Of a DNA stretch of 64,000 nucleotides, positions 50,992-64,000 are shown one piece after another. Where the stretch lies: positions 224,001 to 288,000 of the IMG/VR virus record IMGVR_UViG_3300028887_000067; one strand, written 5' to 3'. Under the pieces are notes generated by a model that was not told the origin of the DNA, did not search any database, and saw only the letters and a list, made by a program, of their open reading frames with translations. This DNA comes from a virus. Its lineage: Duplodnaviria > Caudoviricetes. Made by a program: the position numbers and the translations under genes. The stretch's first letter is position 1. The number at the start of each line of letters is the position of its first letter.

Positions 50992-51256
50992 GGACAGGCG
51001 CGACAAGAAGTTGCGCCGTATGCTGATGGAATACGACAAGGTCAATCACGGCGCAGGAGCCGACGTCCTGAGGAAGTACGGGGCGGACACCGACGACCTG
51101 CACAGCGCGATCAGGGAAACCTGTTCCGTACCGGGCCCGGCCGACAACAGCAGGGCGGCCTACCGGCACGAAATACGTTCCAACAAGGAAAGGGCGCTAT
51201 CCAAGTACGAGCGCCGAGAACTGGAAGAAGCAATCAACGATGAGGAAACCACATGA
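50975..51256 (+). CDS. Small charged hypothetical protein
   Basis: Overlaps both neighbours. Confidence 0.55.
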   Translation: MKRTYKDRRDKKLRRMLMEYDKVNHGAGADVLRKYGADTDDLHSAIRETCSVPGPADNSRAAYRHEIRSNKERALSKYERRELEEAINDEETT

Positions 51257-52455
51257 GCGAAGACGCCAAGCCAAACGACAAAATGAACGCATGTACTACC
51301 GACATCATAGACCCGTCGTCGGTAATGAAAAATGACCCGACTTTCTGCGGGTCTACATTGCAACAGGGAATGCCCGACCCCCGCACCGCCGAGCCCAAGG
51401 AATCCTTCCTGTTCGGCGGCGTTGTAAAGAATATGACGTTTCGCGATGACGATATAAACCTTGTCGGCCGCCTAATCACGTTCTACAACTGCCGCTTCGA
51501 GGGCGATATCAATATCAATGCCGAAGGGTGCGCATCAATCGCGTTCAAATTTTGCTCGTTTACCAACAGCGTTACCATCAATTTGAAAAACGGGACGAAT
51601 TTGTTTATCGACGACTCTGACGGAAACAACATCTCCATAAAGGCTCGTGATGATTCCATTACATGCGCCCGTATACACAATACTCGGCTATCTCGCCTTC
51701 GTATGTCGCACATACAAACGGTCCACATCAGCAAACGCATCCCTGTGAGCGTAGAAATAGCATACTGGAGCAACGTCACCATATACGACATAGTCAATGA
51801 GTTCAAATGGAGCTCCTTGTGCCTGAATTGCTCCATCGGCGAAGCCGACCTTTCACTGCACAATGTCGACATGAATAATCGTGGCTGGATTGGGATCTAC
51901 GACTCCCTTTGCAAGATATACGCGAACCACGGGTCGAAAATCAATGTTCTCCGCGCCAACAAGTCGTGCATCAAGAAACTGTCCTTGACCGACGCGAGCG
52001 TCCACATCCTGGCGGGCAATGATTCTCTTATCGACCACTGCGACATGGTCGAATACGCCGGCGCGACCCAATCCCACGGCTTCCCCGAAATTCCGATGAC
52101 CCTGTACAAGAAGGTGAAACTGAAGACCTACACCCTGTTCGGTAAATTTGTCGGCGTGGGGCCGGCAATCGTCAAGCTGGAGGTGCCCGAACACGCCATC
52201 AAGCATTTCTCCATCGGCTCCAATAACAAGATACGCGTGTCCGAGGCGATGCCGGTCGCCGTGCTCGACATCACCGGAAGCGAGATCCGACTGCCGTGGC
52301 GCTACCGAATCACTTCATTGTTCGACCCCACGTACGAGTACCGGATCGGACGGACCGCAGTCCCGAATCGCCCCTTCGACGACTCCGACGCCACCTGCGC
52401 TTCCGGAATCCACGGATTCCTCGACATTAAATCTGCCGTCGAGTATACAGGATAG
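51253..52455 (+). CDS. Beta-solenoid plus DUF5758-like C-terminal domain, paralog B1
   Basis: LYKK, IVKLEVP, KIRVSEA, PFDDSDATCASGIHGF. Confidence 0.75.
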   Translation: MSEDAKPNDKMNACTTDIIDPSSVMKNDPTFCGSTLQQGMPDPRTAEPKESFLFGGVVKNMTFRDDDINLVGRLITFYNCRFEGDININAEGCASIAFKFCSFTNSVTINLKNGTNLFIDDSDGNNISIKARDDSITCARIHNTRLSRLRMSHIQTVHISKRIPVSVEIAYWSNVTIYDIVNEFKWSSLCLNCSIGEADLSLHNVDMNNRGWIGIYDSLCKIYANHGSKINVLRANKSCIKKLSLTDASVHILAGNDSLIDHCDMVEYAGATQSHGFPEIPMTLYKKVKLKTYTLFGKFVGVGPAIVKLEVPEHAIKHFSIGSNNKIRVSEAMPVAVLDITGSEIRLPWRYRITSLFDPTYEYRIGRTAVPNRPFDDSDATCASGIHGFLDIKSAVEYTG

Positions 52456-52457
52456 CC

Positions 52458-53660
52458 ATGTCAAGCGAAAGTAACAAGACAATAAAGATAAAGAACAAGC
52501 GCGATGTCTTCGTCGACGGCGGCGCCGGCCTCGCGAACTATGTATCGAAGTTCTTTGAAACGGTCGGACACGGCGACGAGGAGAGGACCATCTGCGTGTC
52601 CGACACCACCTTCGTCGTGAGAAACGACCAGTCCCATTTCTTCATCCCCGGCACGCAGGTCAAGTTCCTCAGGTGCAAGTTCAATTGCATCGAACTCCTC
52701 ATGGCGAACCAGTGCGTGTTCCAGAACTGCATCTTCGATGCCGACACCGTAATCTCGATGGTCCACGACAAGAAGATCTCCCTGGTCGGCTGTACGAAGG
52801 GATCGCTGATCCGCTTCACCTCGTACTACCCAAGGGCGGAGCTCGTCATCGACGGCGTCAACCGCTCGGTCTCCCTCGGCATATCGGCGACCGGCTTCGG
52901 CAAGGTGACCATCGCCAACCTTTCCGACCCGCTGGACGGCGTCCTGATCGAGAAGACCGGCGAGGTGGTGTTCGACCACGTGTGCATGTATGGCAGGACC
53001 CAGCCCGACTGCGCAATACGCATCAACGATATGAACGGCGCCGACGACAGGGGGTTGACGTTCATCGAATCGACCATCAACGTACCCGTCCTCGTCCGCG
53101 ACTCGTTCGTCAACATATTCGCCAGGAACCATTCCACGGTCAACTACCTCGAGGTGGACCTCTCCATGCTGAAACGCATCTGGGTCGAGCTCAAGTGCGC
53201 CGTGAACACGCTGAAGACGTTCCGCAGCACGTTCGCCTCGAACCGCGTCGGGCCGGGCAAGGCCAACCTGTTCCCCACCCAGTCCAGCGGCTACGACACG
53301 TTGCCGGAAATATTCATCTACAAGAAGGCCGACCTGTATCTCGGCCCGTGGTTCCTGCCGTCATGGCTCTGCATCAAGACCCGCCACCAAGTGATAGTGG
53401 AACTCCGCGTCCCCGAGGGGGCCGGGCGCCACGCGTCCATCGACGGCAAGATCAGGGTGGAACGCGCCAAGGTATTCGCCTTCCGCTACCTCCAAGGGAA
53501 GGTCGGCCCGTTCCACTCGGTCCGCAGCTTGCACTACCCGAATTTCACGTACAGGATGTGCAAGGACGTCCGGCCCGACGAGCCGTTCGACAACTCCGAC
53601 AACACGTGCGCCTCCGGGATCCACGGGTTCCTCTCCCTCAATGAAGCGCTCAACTACTAG
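52458..53660 (+). CDS. Paralog B2 (DUF5758-like)
   Basis: IYKK, KIRVERA, PFDNSDNTCASGIHGF. Confidence 0.75.
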   Translation: MSSESNKTIKIKNKRDVFVDGGAGLANYVSKFFETVGHGDEERTICVSDTTFVVRNDQSHFFIPGTQVKFLRCKFNCIELLMANQCVFQNCIFDADTVISMVHDKKISLVGCTKGSLIRFTSYYPRAELVIDGVNRSVSLGISATGFGKVTIANLSDPLDGVLIEKTGEVVFDHVCMYGRTQPDCAIRINDMNGADDRGLTFIESTINVPVLVRDSFVNIFARNHSTVNYLEVDLSMLKRIWVELKCAVNTLKTFRSTFASNRVGPGKANLFPTQSSGYDTLPEIFIYKKADLYLGPWFLPSWLCIKTRHQVIVELRVPEGAGRHASIDGKIRVERAKVFAFRYLQGKVGPFHSVRSLHYPNFTYRMCKDVRPDEPFDNSDNTCASGIHGFLSLNEALNY

Positions 53661-53668
53661 GATGACAT

Positions 53669-54961
53669 ATGGAAGAAATTAGCCTTTCGAAGAAAAAGTG
53701 GCCGAAGGACCCCGAACTGGTCCGGAAGACCGACCCGCAATTCCGCGGATCGACCCTGGAATACGACTACTGCGAGACGCATTGCGTCACCGACGACGGC
53801 TTTGCCAGGGTCGTCGACGAACACGCCATGGTGGATGTCGACGACGACCACAACCCGATCGTCGTCATCCGCGACATGGTGTTCGCCGGACGCATCTACG
53901 TTACCCTGGACGGCACCAAGTTCGCGTCCAAGATATACCCCCACCGCGTCGTGTTCAGGAACTGCGTGTTCCAGATGGACCTCGGCCTCCCGCCCGCGAT
54001 CTACGTAAGCTCGACCACCGTGTTCGCCGACTGCTCGTTCAGCCCGAATACTATCGTCCACGCCGGATGTCGCTCGAACATCACCTTCCGCTACCCCTTC
54101 AGCGCATCGATGGAAGTGCGCGGGACGGAACCGGTCGAAATGCTTCCCGGCACCAGAGTGTCCTTCGACCACGCGGACGGCGTCAGGGACCTCCACATCA
54201 ACTACGTGAGGGAAGCCACCATACACGACGGGACGGCGCCCTACTGCGTCCAAGCCTACGCCTGCTGCAGACTGACGCTCGCCCGTCTCGGCCCGAACAG
54301 CCATCAGAAAACGTCGGTCAGCTTCGACAATGCAGCCGGGTACCGCCCGCAGCTGTCCTTCGACAGGTGCTCTCTCGACCCGTCTGTGTCGACCGTGAGC
54401 GTAAACGACTCGGCGGACTGCGGCGTGTCGTCCGTCGAATCGGAGCTCGGGTGCCTCCACGTGGTCGACAGCGTCCTCAGGTCGTTCAACCTCGAAAGGG
54501 GGTCCATACGCGTCCTCAGCGCGACCAACTCCATCTGCAAGCTGTGGGAAGGCGACCCGCCGGGCTTCGCGGCGTCCATCAATTCCCTCGGCTTCCCCGA
54601 GACCCCCGCCGTCCTGTACAAGAAGGTCCGCATCGACTACCACGACGGGAGGCCGGCGCTACGCACCCTGCTCAAGCTCGAGGTCCCCGCCGGCGCCCTC
54701 AAGTGCTACAGCAGCTACAACACGGGAACCTGCGGGAAGATACGCGTCTCCGAGGCGAGGGTCGTCGCCATGGTCGACTCCGACGGCAACCCCCACAGGA
54801 AGCCGTTCCTCTCGTCGCTCTCCAGCATCCACGACCCCAACTTCAAGTACAGGATAGGCAAGACCGTCCGCCCGAAGACACCGTTCCTCGTGGCCGACGA
54901 GGTCTGCGCCCCCGGTATCCACGGGTTCCTCTCCGTCGAGGAAGCGGCAAACTACGAATAG
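53669..54961 (+). CDS. Paralog B3 (DUF5758-like)
   Basis: LYKK, KIRVSEA, CAPGIHGF. Confidence 0.75.
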   Translation: MEEISLSKKKWPKDPELVRKTDPQFRGSTLEYDYCETHCVTDDGFARVVDEHAMVDVDDDHNPIVVIRDMVFAGRIYVTLDGTKFASKIYPHRVVFRNCVFQMDLGLPPAIYVSSTTVFADCSFSPNTIVHAGCRSNITFRYPFSASMEVRGTEPVEMLPGTRVSFDHADGVRDLHINYVREATIHDGTAPYCVQAYACCRLTLARLGPNSHQKTSVSFDNAAGYRPQLSFDRCSLDPSVSTVSVNDSADCGVSSVESELGCLHVVDSVLRSFNLERGSIRVLSATNSICKLWEGDPPGFAASINSLGFPETPAVLYKKVRIDYHDGRPALRTLLKLEVPAGALKCYSSYNTGTCGKIRVSEARVVAMVDSDGNPHRKPFLSSLSSIHDPNFKYRIGKTVRPKTPFLVADEVCAPGIHGFLSVEEAANYE

Positions 54962-54967
54962 CGAGAC

Positions 54968-55297
54968 ATGAAGACGTACACAGAGAAGAAAGCCCTGGAA
55001 CTGCTCGCGCTGCCGTGTCTCGGCTACCACACGTATTCCCCCGACGGGAACGAGTTCGACTGCGAATACCAGGCCGAATGCATCTGCGAGGACTGCATCT
55101 GCAACTTCGGCGAATGCCACGGCCACATCGACCCCAGGACGAACCACCACGTCTCCCAGAAAATCCTCGACAAGATGCGGGAAATCTACTCCTTGCCGTT
55201 CCGGCGGATGAAGGACAACCCGCTGCCCCCAGAAGAGTTCCGGAAGTACCTAGAAGACCTCCAATACTGGAAATATCCCACGCCGTACAGAGGGTAA
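54968..55297 (+). CDS. Small Cys-rich protein
   Basis: DCEY..ECICEDCICN..CH. Confidence 0.6.
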   Translation: MKTYTEKKALELLALPCLGYHTYSPDGNEFDCEYQAECICEDCICNFGECHGHIDPRTNHHVSQKILDKMREIYSLPFRRMKDNPLPPEEFRKYLEDLQYWKYPTPYRG

Positions 55298-55300
55298 CCC

Positions 55301-56608
55301 ATGACCAAGAAAAAGACAGACACCAAAGAAGACAGCGCCGTCCTCCTGGACGACAGCCTCCCCTTCGACACGTTCCTAAAAAAGCACGCCCGCGTGGACA
55401 GCTTCCTCTTCCAGGAAGAGAGCTGGCGTTCCGGCGAAGTCCCGAAAGGCCTGGCCAAGGCGTACACCCTGCCGGCCTTCATCGTCGAGAACCTCACCCT
55501 GATGTCGAACGACATCCGCATCGAACCCGGCGACAAGTCCCGCCCCGTCGTCTTCAGGAACTGCACCTTCCGCCCCGTCCTGAACAAATGCACGACGTTC
55601 GTGCGGATCGCCGAGGAGAGGAAGGCTGAGTTCGTCGACTGCAGGTTCGAGGCGCCGCACAGGACCTGCTTCACCGTCGAATCAGGCGCCGACCTCAACC
55701 TCACCCGCTCGAAAACCGAGTCCACGATACTCGTCGAGGGGATGGGCAACTCCGACGTCAGGGTGGACGACTGCGACATCTTCAATTTCCTCGTGATGTC
55801 CGTCTACCGCATCAACTTCGTCTCGAGACTCCCCTACTCGGTCGACATCGAACAGGCCTCGTACGTACAGGTCTCCGACGTGGACGAGTCGGACCCCAGG
55901 TTCGAGTCGGCGCACCCGTGTCTCTCCGTCTGGAACGGGAAGGACGGCGCGTTCTCCACTGTCCGTTTCTACGACTCCGCCCTATCCGCAAAAAGGGTCG
56001 TTTCCATCCGGGACTCCGTATACTCCGTCTACTGCCTGCGTTCCCATATACAGGTCCTCGACATAGAGCAGTCGCTCATAAGGCAGCTCTATACCCCCGA
56101 TTCCACGATACGGATGCTCAGGACGGCCGACTCGACCCTCGTCGAGCCCTGCGGCAAGTCCGTGGAGAACGCGGTGCGCTCCTGCGCCCCCGCGAGGTCG
56201 CACGGCTTCCCCGACCTGCCCATGGTCCTGTACAAGAAGGCCGTACTCCGTATCCCTAGCCGAAACCCATTCTCCCGAAAATGCGCCCGCAGCGAGGAGG
56301 TCATCGTCAAGCTGTCCGTCCCCGCCTCGGCCAGGAAACGCTACGATACCTCCTACAGGAAGATAAGGGTCTCCGAGGCCGTCGTCACGGGCCTGTACAA
56401 CCTGAAGAACGAAGAGCTGACCCTCCCTGCCCTCGGTCGCCTCCTCGGACGCTACGAGGTCCACTCGTTCAGGGACACCTCCTTCAGGTACTGGCCGAAC
56501 AAGACGGTGAAGCCGTCCCTCCCGTTCGACGACTCCGACAACACGTGCTCCTCCGGGATCCACGGGTTCCTCGACTTCGAGGACGCCGTCAACTACAGCA
56601 TCTGGTAG
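55301..56608 (+). CDS. Paralog B4 (DUF5758-like)
   Basis: LYKK, KIRVSEA, PFDDSDNTCSSGIHGF. Confidence 0.75.
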   Translation: MTKKKTDTKEDSAVLLDDSLPFDTFLKKHARVDSFLFQEESWRSGEVPKGLAKAYTLPAFIVENLTLMSNDIRIEPGDKSRPVVFRNCTFRPVLNKCTTFVRIAEERKAEFVDCRFEAPHRTCFTVESGADLNLTRSKTESTILVEGMGNSDVRVDDCDIFNFLVMSVYRINFVSRLPYSVDIEQASYVQVSDVDESDPRFESAHPCLSVWNGKDGAFSTVRFYDSALSAKRVVSIRDSVYSVYCLRSHIQVLDIEQSLIRQLYTPDSTIRMLRTADSTLVEPCGKSVENAVRSCAPARSHGFPDLPMVLYKKAVLRIPSRNPFSRKCARSEEVIVKLSVPASARKRYDTSYRKIRVSEAVVTGLYNLKNEELTLPALGRLLGRYEVHSFRDTSFRYWPNKTVKPSLPFDDSDNTCSSGIHGFLDFEDAVNYSIW

Positions 56609-56878
56609 CGGACACGTCACCCAGTACCCCCCTACCCCCCGTACCCCCCAAATTTTTTTTGAAAACGGGTCACTGGGCATGCGTTTTTACGTGGGTAGGG
56701 CCCGACGGCACCCCTATATGAATATGCCGAGACCCCCCAGCATATAGTATGCTCCGGTCGATTTTCCGCACCGGGGCTTTTGATTTTTTTGTTTTTTCGT
56801 ACCCATGAATAATTTTTGAAAAATTTCCCCGCCCCTCTTCCCCTGCCTCTCCCTTGCCTCCCTCTGCCCCCGTTGTCC

Positions 56879-56973
56879 GACCCTGCCAGGCCCTGCCGGT
56901 TCCGGCAACCCCCGGCACACCCCTGCCAGACCCATGCCAGACCCATGCCAGACCCATGCCAGACCTTGCCGGA
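56879..56973 (+). repeat. 10-11 bp tandem repeat CCCATGCCAGA
   Basis: Three exact copies at 56931-56963 plus about four degenerate copies. Confidence 0.85.
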
Positions 56974-57137
56974 GCCGGCCCGCCTGGCCACCGGCCGCGA
57001 GCGTAAACCCCCACCAGAAAAAGGTGCCCGAATGTGCCCTACGGCGGTTTCGGCCACTACCGATCCGGGTCCGGGGTTCCTCCGGGTCGGCATCGGGATG
57101 GACGTGAGGACACAACCCCCTCGCATCGGAGTTGACT

Positions 57138-57293
57138 ATAGCAACGTGTGACATTGACAAGTTCTTCGACGACCTCGTGGCGAACGGAGCCAAGGAGCTG
57201 GATGCAGACAGGTACTTCAGGTGCCTGCGCAGCGGCATAAAGCCCCAAATGGCGGTGAAGATTTCCGCCATCCGCACGTCGCGTAAAGGTTAG
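57138..57293 (+). CDS. 51-codon ORF with ATA in the start position (possibly pseudogenised)
   Basis: Follows motif copy 1; GGAGTTGACT-ATA mirrors GGAGTTAAGCT-ATG. Confidence 0.45.
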   Translation: MATCDIDKFFDDLVANGAKELDADRYFRCLRSGIKPQMAVKISAIRTSRKG

Positions 57294-57478
57294 GCGCTTG
57301 TAATGGACATTTGGGCATATACGGCGGTTTCCCGCCGTATATTTTTGCCCTTCCGGCCTGTGCCACTGCCGGCCCGTTGCCGGGGCTCCTCAGCGCCCCC
57401 ATCGGATGTGTGTAAGGCGAAAGGCCGAGCACCGAACGGGTGGCGGTAAGGTTCCACCCCTCTCAAAGGAGTTAAGCT

Positions 57479-58345
57479 ATGTTGAAAGCCATTAACACGG
57501 CGTTCTTGGAGAAGTTCTATTCTTCGTTCGCCCGTCTTGAATACTGCGGAAAGGTCAAACTTGTCCAAAAGGCGAGGCTTGCGAACGCTGTCCTTGCTGG
57601 CAAGATTGCCGAACACGGGCTCTACGTTGCCCCCGTTGGCGACCCCTGCACCCTTGGCGACGTCTACAAGAGCAACACCTACGCCATCCAGCTTGGCGGT
57701 TCTATGGACTACAAGCGGTGCGTGATGAACGCCATCGGCCGTGCCGGAAACAAGGGCATTGTGGAAAGCTACGAGCCCGACCAGCGCAACACGGGTTACT
57801 TCCCCATCTTCAAGGATTTCCTGTACTGCAAGAACGACCTGACGGACTACGCTATCGCCGTGTACCGCCGGAGCGACACGTCCGACCCGAAATATTTTCT
57901 TGCAAACGGCACGGAAATCGACAAGTACGCCTTCGCCCAGTGGGCTCCGTCCGACGATTTCAAGCGTTGGAGCGGTGAAGAAGTCAAGAAGTCGGCCGTG
58001 GGCGTGATGGTTCCCGTGTTCACCAGCGACGGAAAAATGATTTTTGAGACGGATGCTGAAGGGAATCAGATTCTTGGCAAGGACGGCAAGCCCGTGCCCA
58101 AGAAAAAGAAGGTGATGCTCCCTGCACGTGACGACAACGGGGATATTATTTTTGAGAAGGATGCCGACGGCAATCTCGTACCGAAAGAAATTCCTCTCCC
58201 CCCGTTCCAGCGCATCAACCTCTCGAATTGCCGTGTGTACATCAAGGAACACAACATCACCGACCAAATTTTGTTGAACCGCCCCGTTGATATGGCGTGG
58301 CTGTTGCAGAAAAAGGCCGAATTTGAAGAACGGGTCGGGAAGTAG
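57479..58345 (+). CDS. Hypothetical protein
   Basis: AAGGAG RBS; terminator at 58363-58385. Confidence 0.8.
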   Translation: MLKAINTAFLEKFYSSFARLEYCGKVKLVQKARLANAVLAGKIAEHGLYVAPVGDPCTLGDVYKSNTYAIQLGGSMDYKRCVMNAIGRAGNKGIVESYEPDQRNTGYFPIFKDFLYCKNDLTDYAIAVYRRSDTSDPKYFLANGTEIDKYAFAQWAPSDDFKRWSGEEVKKSAVGVMVPVFTSDGKMIFETDAEGNQILGKDGKPVPKKKKVMLPARDDNGDIIFEKDADGNLVPKEIPLPPFQRINLSNCRVYIKEHNITDQILLNRPVDMAWLLQKKAEFEERVGK

Positions 58346-58413
58346 GGAAACCTACCAACGGCAGGGGGCGCAAGCCCCCTTTTTTATTTGCTCCAAAACT
58401 TTTGTTTTGGGGC

Positions 58414-58552
58414 TTTTTCCGTTCGTGCGCCCTATGGCGTTTTTTGTTCTGTAACCGCCTAGGGCGGTTTTTTCCGTTCGTGCGCCCTATGGCGTTTTTT
58501 TCGTTCTGTAACCGCCTAGGGCGGTTATTCTTTTTTAAGCTCCCTATGGCGC
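58414..58552. repeat. About 55-bp tandem duplication made of about 28-bp hairpin units
   Basis: CCTA(T/G)GG at 58431, 58458, 58486, 58515, 58543. Confidence 0.8.
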
Positions 58553-58758
58553 CCGTGGATGCCGTTTTTTGCGGTTCCCGTAGCCCGTGGGCTCGTTTTG
58601 TGCCTATGCCGTGTTGGTGTGGGGGTTTCTTTTTCGTGCCCTGCGTGGGCGGTTCGTGGCCGTCCCCCGGCCTGTCACTGCCGGACGGTGGCCGGGGCTC
58701 CTCCGCGCCCCCATCGGGTGTGTGTGAGGCGATGAGGCCTCGCAAAGGAGTCAAGCAA

Positions 58759-59082
58759 ATGAAAAACAAGTTTTTGCAAGTCCTGTTCGCCAACAGGGAG
58801 ACCCTGTTGAAGCAGGCACGTGCGGACTGGGAGTCCAAGAAGCGCCCCCACGGGCCGTTCCTCTCCCGTCTCTTCGTGGACGAACGCGGTAAGGTGTTCT
58901 ACGACTGCCGTAACGACCACGACCTGAACACGGCTCTCGTGACCCGTGTCCGTCTCGGCAAGGTCGTCATCGCCGCCATCAAGGGCGTGCTGAAGGTGAC
59001 GACCGAGGACGAATGCGAGCACGTGAGGATGGCGGAGCTCACCGAGGAGTACAAGCGCCTCCACGCTGGGGCGCAGGCCTAA
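58759..59082 (+). CDS. Hypothetical protein
   Basis: Motif copy plus AAGGAG RBS. Confidence 0.75.
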   Translation: MKNKFLQVLFANRETLLKQARADWESKKRPHGPFLSRLFVDERGKVFYDCRNDHDLNTALVTRVRLGKVVIAAIKGVLKVTTEDECEHVRMAELTEEYKRLHAGAQA

Positions 59083-59236
59083 GGCCTAGCCGTCCGACCC
59101 CCGACCCCGAGGGGGCAACGGACGGCCTTTGCCGTCCCTCCCAGGGTTCGGCACTGCCGGCCCGTGGCCGGGTTTCCTCGGGGGCGGGATAAATAATGTG
59201 TAAGGCGATGGTGCCTTACGGAAAGGAGTCAAGCAA

Positions 59237-60208
59237 ATGGAAAAAAGACTTACTTGCCGTGAAGTGGAGCGCAGGATAGGCGTTGAAATCACGGAAAAAT
59301 TTTTGGAGGCGCTTGACAGGCGTGTCATCCCTTGGGAACAGCCTTGGCTCAAGCGTGAGAGCGACTACTACGGAGCGTCGGGCAAGCCCTACGGGTTCCT
59401 GAACTCTCTCCTTCTGTGGCTCGGAGGCCAACAGGCGGGCGAGTTCGTGACGGTCGACCAGGTGATTAAGCGCACCGGCACCAGCCGCAATGGCGAGGGC
59501 GAGGCGTGCGTGTGGAATCGGTTCATCCGCAAGGACGGCAAGTTCCCCGAGGGCACTTATATCGTCTTCAGGGGCAAGGTGCTGGGCAAGCGCCGTGACG
59601 AGAACGGCAACGTCGTCAAGGACAAGGACGGCAACCCCGAGCTTGTGGAATATTGGTGCCTGAAGAGTCACAAGGTGTACCGCATCGGCACCGAGGTTGA
59701 CTGCCCGAGGAACATTCCCGAAAAAACTTTTGACAAGACCCTGCGTGTGGCTAACCCCATACCGAGAGCCGAAAAGATTGTTCTCGACTACGTTTCCCGA
59801 GAGGGGGTCGGGTTCGGCCACGAGATGCAGGGCAGGGCGTTCTATCACCCTGCGACCGACCGCATCAACGTGCCGAGCATAGAAAACTTTGTTTCCGAGC
59901 CCGCCTACTATCAGGCTTGCTTCCACGAGATGGCTCACTCCACGGGTCACTCCAAGCGCCTGCACCGCCCGAAATTTTTCGTCAAGGGCGACGAACGCTA
60001 CTCCCGTGAGGAACTCATAGCGGAAATCGCTTCTGCGGTGTTGCTTCACGAGAACGGGCTGGCGGTCAACACGACCGACAGGAACCACGTGGCCTACATT
60101 CAGAGCTGGGGCAAGGCGCTGAAGAGCGACCCGCTCTTGATAGAGAAGGCAATGGCCGGAGCTATGGCGGCCGTGGAGTACATCTACCACGGCAAGGCGA
60201 AAAAATAA
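59237..60208 (+). CDS. ardC: ArdC-like antirestriction protein (ssDNA-binding plus MPTase domains)
   Basis: IPWEQPW, SGKPY..LN.LLL, AFY.P..D.I.VP, FHEMAHSTG, YSREELIAE, YIQSW. Confidence 0.9.
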   Translation: MEKRLTCREVERRIGVEITEKFLEALDRRVIPWEQPWLKRESDYYGASGKPYGFLNSLLLWLGGQQAGEFVTVDQVIKRTGTSRNGEGEACVWNRFIRKDGKFPEGTYIVFRGKVLGKRRDENGNVVKDKDGNPELVEYWCLKSHKVYRIGTEVDCPRNIPEKTFDKTLRVANPIPRAEKIVLDYVSREGVGFGHEMQGRAFYHPATDRINVPSIENFVSEPAYYQACFHEMAHSTGHSKRLHRPKFFVKGDERYSREELIAEIASAVLLHENGLAVNTTDRNHVAYIQSWGKALKSDPLLIEKAMAGAMAAVEYIYHGKAKK

Positions 60209-60259
60209 ATCCGAAAACGGGGGAGCCGTGAGGCTCCCCCCTTTCCCTAGGGGGTTCAA

Positions 60260-60418
60260 ATGTTTTTTTCAATTAAACTTTTGCTTTGCGTCGTCGTGGG
60301 TTTCGTAATCACGGCCAAGTATATCAAGGGCAAGGCCTTCGCCGTGTTGCTGAGCTTTGTCGGGATTGTTTGCGTGACGTGGTGCGTCACGAGCTACATT
60401 CAGAAGATTTTTGCTTAA
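60260..60418 (+). CDS. 52-aa two-TM membrane protein (not in ORF track)
   Basis: MFFSIKLLLCVVVGFVITAKYIKGKAFAVLLSFVGIVCVTWCVTSYIQKIFA; AGGGGG RBS. Confidence 0.6.
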   Translation: MFFSIKLLLCVVVGFVITAKYIKGKAFAVLLSFVGIVCVTWCVTSYIQKIFA

Positions 60419-60603
60419 CTCCTAGGGGGAGCCGTGGCGCTCCCCCTTCCAAGATTTTTGCTTACTCCGATGGGCCCGCGGATCGATCTGCGGGCCCTGT
60501 TTCGGTGGCTCGGGGCTGGGCCACTGCCGTGGACAGTCCGGGGTTCCGCTCGGGCCGCATCATTAATATACAAGGAAACGGACAACCAACAAGGAGTTAA
60601 GCC

Positions 60604-60798
60604 ATGTCCAAGGAAACCAAGGAATTTGACGTCGTCGTGATGGATTGCGCCAACCGCAAGGTCACGAAGACCCGTCGCCGCCTCCCCGTCGACATCACCA
60701 AGGTCGAACTCGAGGAGCTGCTGGTGCTTGAGGGCGACTACGACCAGAACACGTGCCACGTGATGTTCGGCGACCACATCAAGGTGGAGGCCGCCTAG
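60604..60798 (+). CDS. Small hypothetical protein
   Basis: Motif copy plus AAGGAG RBS. Confidence 0.75.
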   Translation: MSKETKEFDVVVMDCANRKVTKTRRRLPVDITKVELEELLVLEGDYDQNTCHVMFGDHIKVEAA

Positions 60799-60799
60799 C

Positions 60800-61078
60800 A
60801 TGGGAGTGCCGACCAAGAAGAAGGACAGGCACCGGCCTGGCTACTACAAGGACTACGCCAAGCGCACGGGCCGCAAGGACCGCCACCGCAAGGGGTACTA
60901 CAGGCAGTACAACCTCGCCCACCCCGAGCGCATAGCGCACCTGCTGTGCGACGTGCAGGCCAACAAGCCGTGGTCTCCGAAGCACCCCGACTGGTTTGAC
61001 GAGTACGGCAGGCTCATAAAAGATTTCGGCGACGCCGACGACGTTCACCCGTGTTCCGAAGAAGGACTCGGGCAGTAG
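60800..61078 (+). CDS. Small basic hypothetical protein
   Basis: GGAGG RBS; KDRHR.GYY duplicated. Confidence 0.65.
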   Translation: MGVPTKKKDRHRPGYYKDYAKRTGRKDRHRKGYYRQYNLAHPERIAHLLCDVQANKPWSPKHPDWFDEYGRLIKDFGDADDVHPCSEEGLGQ

Positions 61079-61111
61079 TACAACATTTTACCGAAAGGAG
61101 AATTTTAAATT

Positions 61112-61318
61112 ATGAATCCGAAACTTTCCCAACTGCTGAAAGTGAACAGCTGGGACAAATGGGTCCCCAAGAACCAGCGCACGGCAGAAAATCTTTTGCG
61201 CCTCGTGATTGCCGAGAGCCCCGACGACGCTCCCGCAATGATGGAACAGATGAAGAAGCACGGCCTCACCATCCCGGACGACCTCGCACCGGCCAGAACG
61301 TGGAGCGACTTCAAGTAA
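61112..61318 (+). CDS. Small hypothetical protein
   Basis: AAGGAG RBS. Confidence 0.7.
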   Translation: MNPKLSQLLKVNSWDKWVPKNQRTAENLLRLVIAESPDDAPAMMEQMKKHGLTIPDDLAPARTWSDFK

Positions 61319-61442
61319 TATGGCGAAACATCAACGAATCTACAAGCCCACCAAGAAGCGCGTCAGCGGGTAGGCCGATCCCCTGGCGCGTCCGGGGCTC
61401 CTCCGGGAGCCCATTCCTCCTGTACCAACCAAAGGAGTAAGC

Positions 61443-61667
61443 ATGAACAAATTTAAAATTCTGAACAAGAAATCCGTAGGCTACTGGTCCGCGCTCAACG
61501 GGCTGGAGGTCAAGGAAATCGGCGACGACTACGTGGAATGTGTCAGCGGGTCGTGGGACGGCCACAAGAAGGTGGCTCACTGCGTAAAAATTCATCACAA
61601 CACCAAGGGCGCCTTTATCCGCCTTAGGGGTTACAACTTCTACCTTAGGGACATCGTACCGATGTAA
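61443..61667 (+). CDS. Small hypothetical protein
   Basis: Motif copy plus AAGGAG RBS. Confidence 0.75.
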   Translation: MNKFKILNKKSVGYWSALNGLEVKEIGDDYVECVSGSWDGHKKVAHCVKIHHNTKGAFIRLRGYNFYLRDIVPM

Positions 61668-61678
61668 TGGAGGCCAAA

Positions 61679-61819
61679 ATGTACAGACTTTTGTCAAAGA
61701 CCCGTTTCCTGCGCTTCGCCCAGTTTGCGAGCGGTATCGGCCTCGTGGCTCCCGTTCCCGTGGCCAAGCACGCCTGCAGCGACCTTTACGGGCGGTTCGT
61801 GAAGCGCAACGGGCGATAG
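61679..61819 (+). CDS. 46-aa basic peptide (not in ORF track)
   Basis: GGAGG RBS; MYRLLSKTRFLRFAQF... Confidence 0.5.
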   Translation: MYRLLSKTRFLRFAQFASGIGLVAPVPVAKHACSDLYGRFVKRNGR

Positions 61820-61944
61820 CGGGGGGCGCGTGCGGCCGGGCCTGCGGGCCCGTCCACGTGCGGGAACCGTCCCGCACAATGCCGGCGGCCGGCCGGGGCT
61901 CCTCCGGGCCCGCATCCATCCTATACAACGAAAGGAGCTAAGCG

Positions 61945-62523
61945 ATGGAAACGAACGAAACCAAGACCCTTTACCTCAGGTACGACTGCACGTCCGAAGC
62001 GGACGACGTGGCCTGCCTCGTGACGACAATGACCGGCGACGCCTACGAGGTCGCCGTGAGGAACCCCGCCGACATCCAGGCCGCCGTGGCCAAGGCCGTG
62101 ACCGGCCCGACGAGGCCGCTGGTGGCTGCGCTGCTCGAACGCATGGGCGGTCTCGACAGGGATAGCATCGGCACGGTCGAGGAGACCGGCTGGTACGAAA
62201 GCGCCCGCATCAACTGGGCCGACCCCGCCGCCTCGACCGACCACGACGGCGGGCTGTACAGGGCCGAGGTGCGCCTCGACGACGGCCTGCTCGAGCTCCT
62301 GCGCTCCGACGTAGCCTACGCGCTGGACGACTGGTCGGACTGGGACAAGGACAGGGACGGGGTGAACCCGACCACCGAGGCCGTGTGCGAAAAGATTTGT
62401 TCCGACGCCGGATTTGGCGACGCGGTGCGGGAAATTTTTCCCAAGGTGCTGGACGTGCTCCCCAAGGTGATTTACGACATTATCGCCGACCGCTTGGACG
62501 GGGCCGACATAAAGGAGGAATAA
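61945..62523 (+). CDS. Acidic hypothetical protein
   Basis: Motif copy plus AAGGAG RBS; Asp/Glu-rich. Confidence 0.75.
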   Translation: METNETKTLYLRYDCTSEADDVACLVTTMTGDAYEVAVRNPADIQAAVAKAVTGPTRPLVAALLERMGGLDRDSIGTVEETGWYESARINWADPAASTDHDGGLYRAEVRLDDGLLELLRSDVAYALDDWSDWDKDRDGVNPTTEAVCEKICSDAGFGDAVREIFPKVLDVLPKVIYDIIADRLDGADIKEE

Positions 62524-62525
62524 AA

Positions 62526-62789
62526 ATGATTTCTTTCGCCGAATACGCCGAAAAAGACCCCCGATACGTGCGCCTGCGCAAGAAATTTAAATCCATTGAA
62601 GCGCTTGCCGACAGGGTTGAAGAGAAGCTGGGCACACGGCAGACCCCCACGGGGTTCGGCCAGAACTTTGACAAGGTGACGGCCGTGCAGAATATGATGA
62701 CCGAGCGCCTTGTGCAGCTCCGCAAGTGGTACGACAGCGGTGTGCAGGCCGAGAAGGCGGGCAAGCTGCCCCCGAAGACATTTGCTTAA
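62526..62789 (+). CDS. Small hypothetical protein
   Basis: GGAGG RBS. Confidence 0.7.
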   Translation: MISFAEYAEKDPRYVRLRKKFKSIEALADRVEEKLGTRQTPTGFGQNFDKVTAVQNMMTERLVQLRKWYDSGVQAEKAGKLPPKTFA

Positions 62790-62924
62790 CTCCTGCGGGG
62801 ACGGGCGGGAAACCGCCCGCCTGCCCCCGTTCCACGGTCCGGCTATGCCTGCGGGCGGCCGGGGCTCCCGTGGGAACGCATCAACCCTATACAAGCGAGG
62901 AACAATCAACAAAGGAGTTAAGAA

Positions 62925-63530
62925 ATGGGAACCGCTAGTTTCAAACAGGGGATAGACCCCAAGTTCATCCCGAGGGTCGTCGAGGAACACCCGACCATCC
63001 CCGTGGCGACGACTCAGGTCACGCTGGCCGCCATCCGTCCGATAGCCAAGCGCATCATTAACGGAGCCCGCTGCATCATGTACGACGCCCCGTGCGTAGC
63101 CGAGAGCCACGGCGGTAAGCTGGAATACGTTGCGTGGGGCTCCGGGCGCACCATCAACGACGGGCTCGCCACGCTGTTCGACGCGACCCGCATCGTAACC
63201 ACCATCCCCCGCACGAGCATCCTGAAGCCCGGCGAGGTGGCGGTGAGCCTGGAACGCAACGGGAGCGTGTCCTTCTACAAGATGCCCGAGTCCACGGAAG
63301 AGATGAAGGCGATGGCGTGGATTAACGCGGGCAAGCCCTGCGGATACCGCTACGGATTTTCTTGGAAGGGTGCGAGCACGAGACAAATTTCTTCGGACTC
63401 CGCCCGTGCCAGACTCTCGCAGAAGAAATATTTTGAACTCAGCTACGAACGCCGTGGGGCGAGCACCATCACGTCACAGGGCGAAGAATGGCTCGTGTTC
63501 GTGGAATATTCCGAAAACGACCTCCTGTAA
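62925..63530 (+). CDS. Hypothetical protein
   Basis: Motif copy plus AAGGAG RBS. Confidence 0.75.
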   Translation: MGTASFKQGIDPKFIPRVVEEHPTIPVATTQVTLAAIRPIAKRIINGARCIMYDAPCVAESHGGKLEYVAWGSGRTINDGLATLFDATRIVTTIPRTSILKPGEVAVSLERNGSVSFYKMPESTEEMKAMAWINAGKPCGYRYGFSWKGASTRQISSDSARARLSQKKYFELSYERRGASTITSQGEEWLVFVEYSENDLL

Positions 63531-63651
63531 GGGTGCGGCGGGGCGGGAATCCCGCCCCCCGTTCCCTTCGGGAAACGGTGCGATCGATCCCGGCCGCCCG
63601 CCGGGGCTTCCCTGCGGGCGCATTTTTTCTATACAACCAAAGGAGTTGAAA

Positions 63652-64000
63652 ATGCCTACTAAAACAATCAAGAATGTCGCCAAGAAGGTGACGGGATGCC
63701 TGAATAGCATCGTAAAGGGGATGCGTGTCGTCGTCCTCAGCTGCAGGTACAACACGTCGAGAAGCGGGGACGGCGTCTTCCCGCCCGTGGTATGCTCCAC
63801 GCCGAGCCGTGCCCGTGAAGAGATGTGGAAGGACGTCAAGAAGTACATGAAGACATCCATTGGCGCGGTCAATAAAGACGGGACGATAGATTGGAATTCC
63901 GTGGCCGAGATAGGCGATTTTGACGGCACCGAAGAGGACAGCCCCAAGACGCTTGACGACTTGGAGAAGTACATCATGTCGGGCGATTTCGGGGACAGCC
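63652..64000 (+). CDS. Hypothetical protein, runs off the window end
   Basis: Motif copy plus AAGGAG RBS; open frame MPTKTIKN... Confidence 0.75.
   Translation, partial: MPTKTIKNVAKKVTGCLNSIVKGMRVVVLSCRYNTSRSGDGVFPPVVCSTPSRAREEMWKDVKKYMKTSIGAVNKDGTIDWNSVAEIGDFDGTEEDSPKTLDDLEKYIMSGDFGDS

Follow-up and report, generated by a model that had tools for sequence, protein, structure and literature searches.

PeSL (promoter-early stem-loop) and PmSL (promoter-middle stem-loop) cassettes are known from the T4-type phages RB49, phi1, PST/T4 and nt-1/KVP40 (PMC2839356, PMC4122927), and the PeSL layout is a stem-loop followed by a promoter, a Shine–Dalgarno (SD) sequence and an ATG (PMC4122927). We describe here a repeated module of related layout in a linear phage contig of IMG/VR (record IMGVR_UViG_3300028887_000067, called G000 below), which is 308,245 bp long and estimated to be 81% complete. 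The window, that is the whole stretch of DNA analyzed, comprises 64,000 nucleotides (nt) and corresponds to bases 224001–288000 of the contig; positions given without a contig name refer to it. An earlier note on this DNA had pointed to nine copies of a fixed-spacing motif at the head of small gene units and had proposed the T4-type PeSL as an analogue. That analogue is indeed the closest match, with a stem-loop and promoter, SD and ATG, orphan genes, and exchange at the element. We consider, with a probability of roughly 0.55, that each copy is a composite terminator–promoter module of ~50 bp, PeSL-like but with a promoter that is not of the sigma70 type.

As in the PeSL, a stem-loop terminator (termination being here predicted from the sequence), a promoter and SD/ATG signals would be combined in one element. 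The genes between the copies are small and mostly orphans, the region is hyperplastic and the phage has a gp23-type capsid; relatives gain, lose and displace cassettes at the modules. Four differences separate the two. The putative promoter is not sigma70-like (there is no TTGACA-type −35) and has no Mot box, unlike the promoter by which a PeSL is recognized. The module has four fixed boxes over about 50 bp. Its hairpin overlaps the −35/spacer zone, whereas the PeSL stem-loop lies upstream of the promoter. Finally, 44 to ~73 copies follow each other in one uninterrupted, co-directional block of 27–65 kb, which is extreme in both density and size.

The pattern CnnTnCC-N9-CCGGGKYTYC-N10-SAT has nine matches in the window, all on the + strand between 57055 and 63623 (starts in Table 1), with 0 expected by chance (100 shuffles). 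The gap-free consensus of the earlier note is thus exact (9/9 copies), and its observation that copy 1 is degenerate in the last box holds as well: with the extension N6-TRTRY, eight matches are left and copy 1 drops out. The genome-wide scan that had been suggested as a check recovers the whole array, with 44 copies, all on the + strand, spanning positions 281,071–307,708 of the contig (its last 27 kb). In this census, the exact pattern gave 28 copies and a position-weight matrix (PWM) gave 42; three weaker copies and copy 1 were added by eye. Nothing comparable occurs elsewhere in G000, the best PWM score outside the array being 0.9 bits (either strand, rest of the 308 kb). The array comprises about 55 genes over 27 kb, mostly one gene per module, and since its 44 copies run up to the contig end, the nine copies of the window are the head of a larger array. 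The open reading frames (ORFs) on the + strand of the array show phage codon usage. An antisense ORF of 772 amino acids (aa) lying across four cassettes (G000:301566–303884, − strand) was set aside as a non-coding shadow frame, also by codon usage.

Positions in the module are numbered with the first C of CCGGG as position 1. Downstream from each copy come an A/C-rich leader, a GGAG SD and then an ATG, which lies 50–99 nt from the first C in all copies heading a called gene. The SD had been described before, as had optional 5′ leader hairpins, which we locate behind copies 3 and 4 (Table 1).

Relatives were located through the homology of a phage sigma factor, to which we return below. G001 (355 kb), whose sigma is 72% identical, carries 26 or more copies at the end of its contig, reading gACTGrC-N9-CCGGGnkTCC-N10-TAT-N6-TATACA. 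G005 (348 kb, 91% complete; sigma 58–59% identical to that of G000) has 66 alignable copies at 232–285 kb and seven more up to 297 kb (~73 over 65 kb), reading GACTGGC-N-(G/A)CGGGRCTGCC-N8-TAT-N6-TATACA. The four boxes keep an identical register in the three genomes, with differences in box sequence and in the register of the hairpin. The G005 array lies inside its contig (232–297 kb of 348 kb), and therefore the contig ends of G000 and G001 are assembly breaks and not genome termini; a contig end corresponding to the physical end of the genome was rejected on this ground.

The four boxes occupy positions −14 to −9 (ACTGSC-like), 2 to 10 or 11 (CGGGnnTnC), 21 to 23 (YAT) and 30 to 34 (TRTAC). 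Several observations converge on a promoter. Late boxes, [TG]ATAAACT, number 52 genome-wide vs. 13 expected, and 0 in the array. Loose sigma70-like sites (TTGnnn-N16-18-TAnnnT) occur at 0.04/kb in the array vs. 0.52/kb genome-wide, a ~14-fold depletion, and a consensus scan of the window gave no sigma70-type site before any cassette. Intrinsic terminators in the array stand before motif copies; with several of them stacked upstream of copy 3 (Table 1), the genes behind would need a new transcription start. Because late boxes are absent, sigma70-like sites depleted and terminators internal to the array, the motif is its only visible promoter.

A start site can be predicted. The TRTAC box stands at a constant distance from the upstream boxes, but anywhere from 5 to about 40 nt from the SD. 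In eight copies from the three genomes, a leader hairpin of at least 6 bp begins at position 32–34. The leader hairpin of the ArdC cassette is kept by compensating changes (GTAAGGC/GCCTTAC, GTAAGC/GCTTAC and GTAAGCC/GGCTTAC in the three genomes), and T32 is invariant and followed by a purine at 33. Such 5′-terminal stem-loops, starting from 32–34, imply a start at or just before position 33, and transcription most likely begins at purine 33 (±2 nt). The start proposed in the earlier note, at a purine some 30 nt downstream of the first C, falls within 2 nt of the onset of these compensated hairpins. With +1 at position 33, the boxes lie at −47 to −42, −31 to −23, −12 to −10 and −3 to +2. If the start so placed by the leader hairpins is correct, the −35 hexamer is at −2 to 3 of the module and the −10 hexamer at 21–26, with a spacer of 17 bp and a discriminator of 6 nt, a geometry that is canonical for a bacterial holoenzyme. 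As the earlier note had it, then, each unit appears to be headed by a fixed-spacing, non-sigma70, phage-specific promoter-like module.

Other promoter types fit less well. A canonical −10 at TATACM, with a start ~7 nt later, was rejected: the shortest leaders would then have the start within or beyond their SD, and the conserved leader hairpins would lie outside the transcript. A sigma-54 promoter (GG-N10-GC, −24/−12) would suit some G005 copies (TGGCA, with GC 10 nt later), but it fails in G000, where the upstream box is TGCC or TCCC and positions 1–2 are CC. An RpoH-like −10 (CCCCAT) occurs in many G000 copies, but it is missing from G001 and G005, and a TTGAAA-type −35 is lacking.

The earlier note has spacers that vary. 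Free variation is wrong for N10, which in G000 tends to complement the CCGGGGCTCC box and to form with it a hairpin. The usual form is GGGGCTCC-TCC-GGAGCCCC, and alternative registers occur (e.g., CCGGGCC-5 nt-GGCCCGG). The hairpin is present in most G000 copies with a stem of about 8 bp, and its mean energy is −13.1 kcal/mol vs. −10.0 with a shuffled right arm (Wilcoxon p = 3e-6). In G005, it is the 9-nt loop that contains the conserved box, on a stem of 8 bp with variable sequence. There, 63% of the cells are paired vs. 33–49% in slid controls, with 73 double-sided changes, and 0/500 shuffles reach this covariation. In well-formed G005 stems, G-U pairs number 12 and A-C only 3, an excess that favors sense-strand RNA. 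In all cases the stem stops immediately before YAT, and a T/C-rich run comes next (55% T in G005). In G000, hairpins that abut the previous stop codon are stronger than those lying behind a separate terminator (−14.1 vs. −11.3 kcal/mol, p = 0.01). The N10 hairpin thus probably terminates the cassette before it and overlaps the promoter of the one that follows. An Rfam scan gave no family at E ≤ 0.1. As for the GC hairpins with which most units were said to end, we find such hairpins, with T-runs, at the end of several units.

The same covariation and G-U bias would also suit elements acting at the RNA level only, in an array whose transcription begins elsewhere. Each repeat would then be no promoter but a terminator, an attenuator, a processing site or a nut-like site for a binding protein (a linear box and a hairpin with conserved loop), shaping a long transcript into stable single-gene mRNAs. 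The T-rich tail agrees with this, and the conserved box of G005, in the loop of a variable stem, is what one would expect of a site for an RNA-binding protein. But there is no sigma70-like or late promoter upstream of or within the array for such a transcript, and the strong terminators stacked in the array would stop it. In G000, the stem and not the loop contains the box, which nevertheless keeps a constant distance to YAT and TRTAC. TRTAC is held at a fixed distance from the upstream boxes and not from the SD, leader hairpins start exactly after TRT, and Rfam holds no match. We regard an RNA-level element without promoter as quite improbable.

In the terminator–promoter reading, what recognizes the module? 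The sequence is neither that of a host-type nor that of a late-type promoter, and the host core polymerase would therefore probably need a phage-specific factor. Phage sigma factors that command a regulon of their own are familiar from SPO1 (gp28 and gp33/34). Further cases are gp36 of phiEco32 and of 7-11 (PMC8948821, PMC4331800). G000 codes for a single full member of the sigma70 family, 270 aa long and comprising regions 2 to 4 (G000:154897–155709), and its alignment to SigA/RpoD covers residues 48–257. The phage protein has SFAVFEVRRHM where SigA has TYATWWIRQAI, and SFAVFEVRRHMD where primary sigmas have TYATWWIRQAIT; in region 4.2, it has SKEVIRRAKNRAL vs. TRERIRQIEAKAL in the primary sigma (SigA). 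These substitutions at contact residues are kept across about 50 phage clusters of the family, on large phage contigs. The nearest cellular sigmas, short primary sigmas from Latescibacterota, Gemmatimonadota and Bacteroidota, are only ~30% identical. The promoter of the sigma gene is itself sigma70-like (TTGCAT-N17-TATATT). A late-type ATAAACT box near the gene points the opposite way, into a divergent gene.

The sigma is found in all three genomes that bear an array (G000, G001, G005). This co-occurrence, with the elimination of the other candidates, makes the RpoD-like sigma with replaced −10/−35 contacts the leading candidate for the reader of the module, a plausible one to which we give somewhat less than even odds. 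The likeness to known phage sigma regulons is that a phage sigma70-family protein, here a candidate, would redirect the host core to phage-specific boxes, and that its gene stands behind a host-type promoter. The differences from SPO1, phiEco32 and 7-11 are that the G000 sigma is fully RpoD-like (regions 2 to 4), as in the group 2 jumbo phages (PMC7824862), and that the candidate regulon is an array of accessory genes and not of middle or late essential genes. G000 has a gp23-type capsid gene (E = 8e-64) and is therefore placed among the T4-like “group 2” jumbo phages, which are described as having no polymerase of their own but as carrying RpoD-like sigma factors (PMC7824862). In the literature searched, we found no description of what the RpoD-like sigmas of these phages read. 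The identical sigma is also listed for a contig of 474,914 bp, and another contig, of 479,300 bp, has a 73% relative; more complete assemblies may therefore exist, and the genome may far exceed 308 kb.

Chief among the rival readings is an activator-dependent promoter served by the host primary sigma, in the manner of T4 middle promoters and of sigma appropriation. A DNA-binding protein, from phage or host, would attach to the two direct RCTGSC-like boxes (near −47 and near −27) and recruit the host holoenzyme, which would by itself recognize no more than the TAT and a T-rich −10. T4 middle promoters combine a MotA box at −30 with a sigma70 −10 (PMC2988021), and PmSLs contain a Mot box and a −10 (PMC4122927). 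The modules likewise show a non-canonical box in place of the −35, its center near −27, at a fixed distance from a −10-like TAT; the TAT at −12 to −10, with its T-rich stretch, resembles a host −10. The upstream ACTGGC and proximal RCTGCC boxes are alike and 20 bp apart in the three genomes, and immediate-early expression would be possible with a factor that is injected or host-encoded. Conversely, the box sequence is unrelated to that of the MotA box, the module has an extra distal box and a conserved start-site box, and most G000 copies have a weak upstream box. No homologue of MotA or AsiA was found in G000 and no candidate activator was identified; moreover, the rewired phage sigma would be left with no visible regulon. 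An activator acting with the host sigma is, in our estimate, unlikely.

A phage polymerase as reader was among the proposals of the earlier note, and it is not supported. G000 has no PF00940 match, so that a T7-like RNA polymerase is not detected. Two giant ORFs, of 2197 aa (G000:183098–189694, −) and 1994 aa (G000:90575–96559, +), have no sequence match in Pfam, PHROG or PDB. They show no polymerase signal and no DxDGD-type motif, although very divergent enzymes could escape such a search. An unrecognized, possibly virion-delivered enzyme, in one version N4-like and reading a DNA hairpin, could be sought in these two ORFs. An N4-type promoter has a stem of 5–7 bp and a loop of 3 nt, at a short and constant distance from the start, and is read by a giant virion polymerase with a T7-like domain. 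In consensus G000 copies the hairpin loop is 3 nt long and reads GGA on the template strand, which resembles the N4 early promoters, and the conserved TRTAC lies directly at the predicted start, an arrangement shared with promoters of single-subunit polymerases. But the register and the loop of the hairpin vary (3–5 nt in G000, 9 nt in G005), the hairpin ends ~12 nt and not ~5 nt before the predicted start, and the 2197-aa ORF sits among tail-fiber-type genes. T4-like group 2 jumbo phages are reported, besides, to lack polymerases of their own (PMC7824862). Such an enzyme is very improbable as the reader.

Several points weigh against a composite module read by the phage sigma. The start site, and hence the promoter function, is deduced from sequence. 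There is no T at −7 and there are conserved bases within the “spacer,” both unusual for promoters of the sigma70 family. Many G000 hairpins are without a good U-tract, and termination may be weak. The sigma is tied to the motif by elimination and co-occurrence only, and it could serve another class of genes. Dependence on the phage sigma would make ArdC and the other cassettes delayed-early and not immediate, which is odd for an anti-restriction gene. Lastly, the incomplete contigs of two more distant genomes that have the sigma, G002 and G006, show no array. The negatives among relatives have a limited reach: G002 and G006, examined as whole contigs, gave no repeated array motif, and three further sigma-bearing contigs (G007–G009), searched with the G000-type pattern alone, gave no match, but all these contigs are 44–67% complete, which says little. 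In G006 (253 kb, 67% of the genome), a different repeat of ~21 nt, starting with GATTTACATGG, occurs in 6–7 copies, and the late box TATAAACTG occurs 16 times.

The arrays of G000, G001 and G005 start at the same syntenic site, share their first cassette and have ArdC shortly behind it. The flanks are syntenic between relatives, whereas the content of the array varies. Between G000 and G001, 15 cassette proteins are shared (28–69% identity), 10 in order and 5 displaced, and ~22 cassettes in G001 and ~40 in G000 are without a partner. Blocks of nucleotide homology start within 1–3 nt of the first base of the module (e.g., at G000 289,627 and 293,884) and stop at the end of the gene. The unit of exchange is therefore the module plus its gene, and the shuffling of cassettes through the repeats, which had been suggested before, is seen in an order that differs between the two genomes and is rearranged exactly at the module. 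The scrambled order is observed directly; for the mechanism, we infer recombination between modules. Searches with a flanking gene and with one cassette gene, as single proteins, yielded no new relatives. The repeated motif is absent from cellular genomes, where 10 scattered single matches in unrelated taxa are at roughly chance level by our own estimate, and a motif search of IMG/VR returned one chance match within a coding region.

That homology begins at the module, that the order is scrambled between relatives and that an imperfect hairpin marks each junction might suggest that the main role of the repeats is in recombination, as attC-like sites or crossover hot spots by which cassettes are captured, with expression signals only secondary. 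No integron-type core sites are seen by eye, and an identity with integron attC sites was rejected on that account; no integrase family is among the matches of the array proteins (the rest of the genome was not searched for one). Four boxes with an SD and an ATG at the 3′ end are an expression signal, and all copies are co-oriented with the genes. A primary role in recombination is, for us, extremely improbable.

Under the terminator–promoter reading, the parts can be assembled as follows. Transcription would start at purine 33 (±2 nt), and the boxes would then match the footprint of a bacterial RNA polymerase holoenzyme. The phage RpoD-like sigma, made from a gene behind a sigma70-like promoter, would direct the host core to the modules. 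The hairpin before YAT, with its T/C-rich tail, would end the preceding cassette, and each small gene would thereby become an insulated unit. As every unit starts with the same module, recombination between modules could move, add and delete cassettes. The modules may thus form an undescribed promoter class, the private regulon of a rewired phage sigma and an orthogonal pair with it, in which the −35/spacer region doubles as the terminator hairpin of the previous gene and the joint also recombines cassettes. We offer this fuller picture tentatively and think it, as a whole, somewhat doubtful.

Only ~5/54 array proteins match any Pfam or PHROG family: ArdC (phrog_7245), SpoVG, DUF2958, one “DNA binding protein” PHROG and a weak endonuclease VII. 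PF08401 (4e-9), PF18818 (8e-30) and phrog_7245 (2e-45) are each matched by one array member, taken to be the ArdC-like ORF behind copy 4 (Table 1), which has homologues in G001 (45% identity) and G005 (41%). There are no paralogues among the array proteins of G000. The earlier note saw an anti-defense island here; because so few proteins match families, ArdC is its only recognizable member, and the name is faintly suggested at best. DUF2958 is typical of plasmid leading regions, where it occurs alongside ArdC. The CUP repeats of the leading regions of IncN plasmids were reportedly described by Delver and Belogurov in 1997. CUP modules carry sigma70 promoters under plasmid repressors, and the single-strand promoters Frpo need a long hairpin that rebuilds the −35 and the −10. 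With both, the array has in common repeated promoter-bearing modules that head early-entry genes, including anti-restriction (Ard) genes. The Frpo analogy, also proposed in the earlier note, fails, since the module hairpin has only ~8 bp and cannot rebuild a −35/−10 duplex.

The features of the window are collected in Table 1. The protein of the first cassette has homologues in G001 (28% identity) and, by tblastx, in G005; the ESM Atlas gave no lead for it. The terminator stack behind this gene includes a 55-bp unit duplicated in tandem and insulates cassette 1 from the rest unusually heavily. Directly upstream of the array, four tandem paralogous genes (51253–56608; 400–435 aa) each have a C-terminal DUF5758 domain. 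Between these paralogues and the array lies a boundary stretch of 450 bp. Tandem Repeats Finder gives rows at 56620–56970 in it (e.g., an 11-nt unit repeated ~9 times at 56879–56970), T-runs are also present, and a piece of ~60 nt (about 56987–57046) is 80% identical in G001. The stretch could be a boundary, an origin-like region or a protein-binding region.

Table 1. Features at and around the head of the module array (positions in the window)
Feature	Position	Strand	Remarks
Boundary region before the array	56610..57054		Gene-free; C-rich tandem repeats, period 9–11 nt; no ORF with a family match
Module copy 1	57055..57104	+	TRTAC box missing; heads a short unit ending at terminator 57318–57347
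Module copy 2	57364..57413	+	ACTGCC box, CCGGGGCTCC at 57380, CAT, TGTGT; PWM 46 bits
Cassette gene, 288 aa, orphan	57479..58345	+	First array cassette in G001 and G005 too
Stack of ~6–8 intrinsic-terminator-like hairpins with T-runs	58363..58623	+	Directly upstream of copy 3
Module copy 3	58676..58725	+	Followed by leader hairpin 58723–58744 and 107-aa gene 58759–59082
Module copy 4	59152..59201	+	Followed by leader hairpin 59199–59220; ArdC cassette
ArdC-like gene, 323 aa	59237..60208	+	ArdC N-terminal domain and zincin-like metallopeptidase
Two GC hairpin terminators	60219–60241, 60425–60446	+	Either side of 52-aa ORF 60260–60418
Module copy 5	60522..60571	+	Heads three small genes: 60604–60798, 60800–61078, 61112–61318
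Module copy 6	61376..61425	+	Heads genes 61443–61667 and 61679–61819; PWM 69 bits
Module copy 7	61877..61926	+	Heads genes 61945–62523 and 62526–62789, then terminator 62797–62827
Module copy 8	62843..62892	+	Heads gene 62925–63530, then terminator 63538–63560
Module copy 9	63585..63634	+	Heads 138-aa gene from 63652, continuing beyond the window end

With a motif that is abundant and sharply defined, and an RpoD-like sigma that co-occurs with it, the question of what such sigmas read becomes directly testable. The PeSL idea, in which terminator–promoter joints are the units of shuffling, is extended to a non-sigma70 promoter and to uncultured rumen phages. The module also offers a sequence handle on a fast-evolving pool of cassettes, ArdC included, in metagenomes. 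If the proposal is true, an orthogonal sigma/promoter pair that is compact and brings its own terminator could serve as a genetic part, and these phages would possess a natural orthogonal pair of this kind, driving an accessory-gene array of 27–65 kb.

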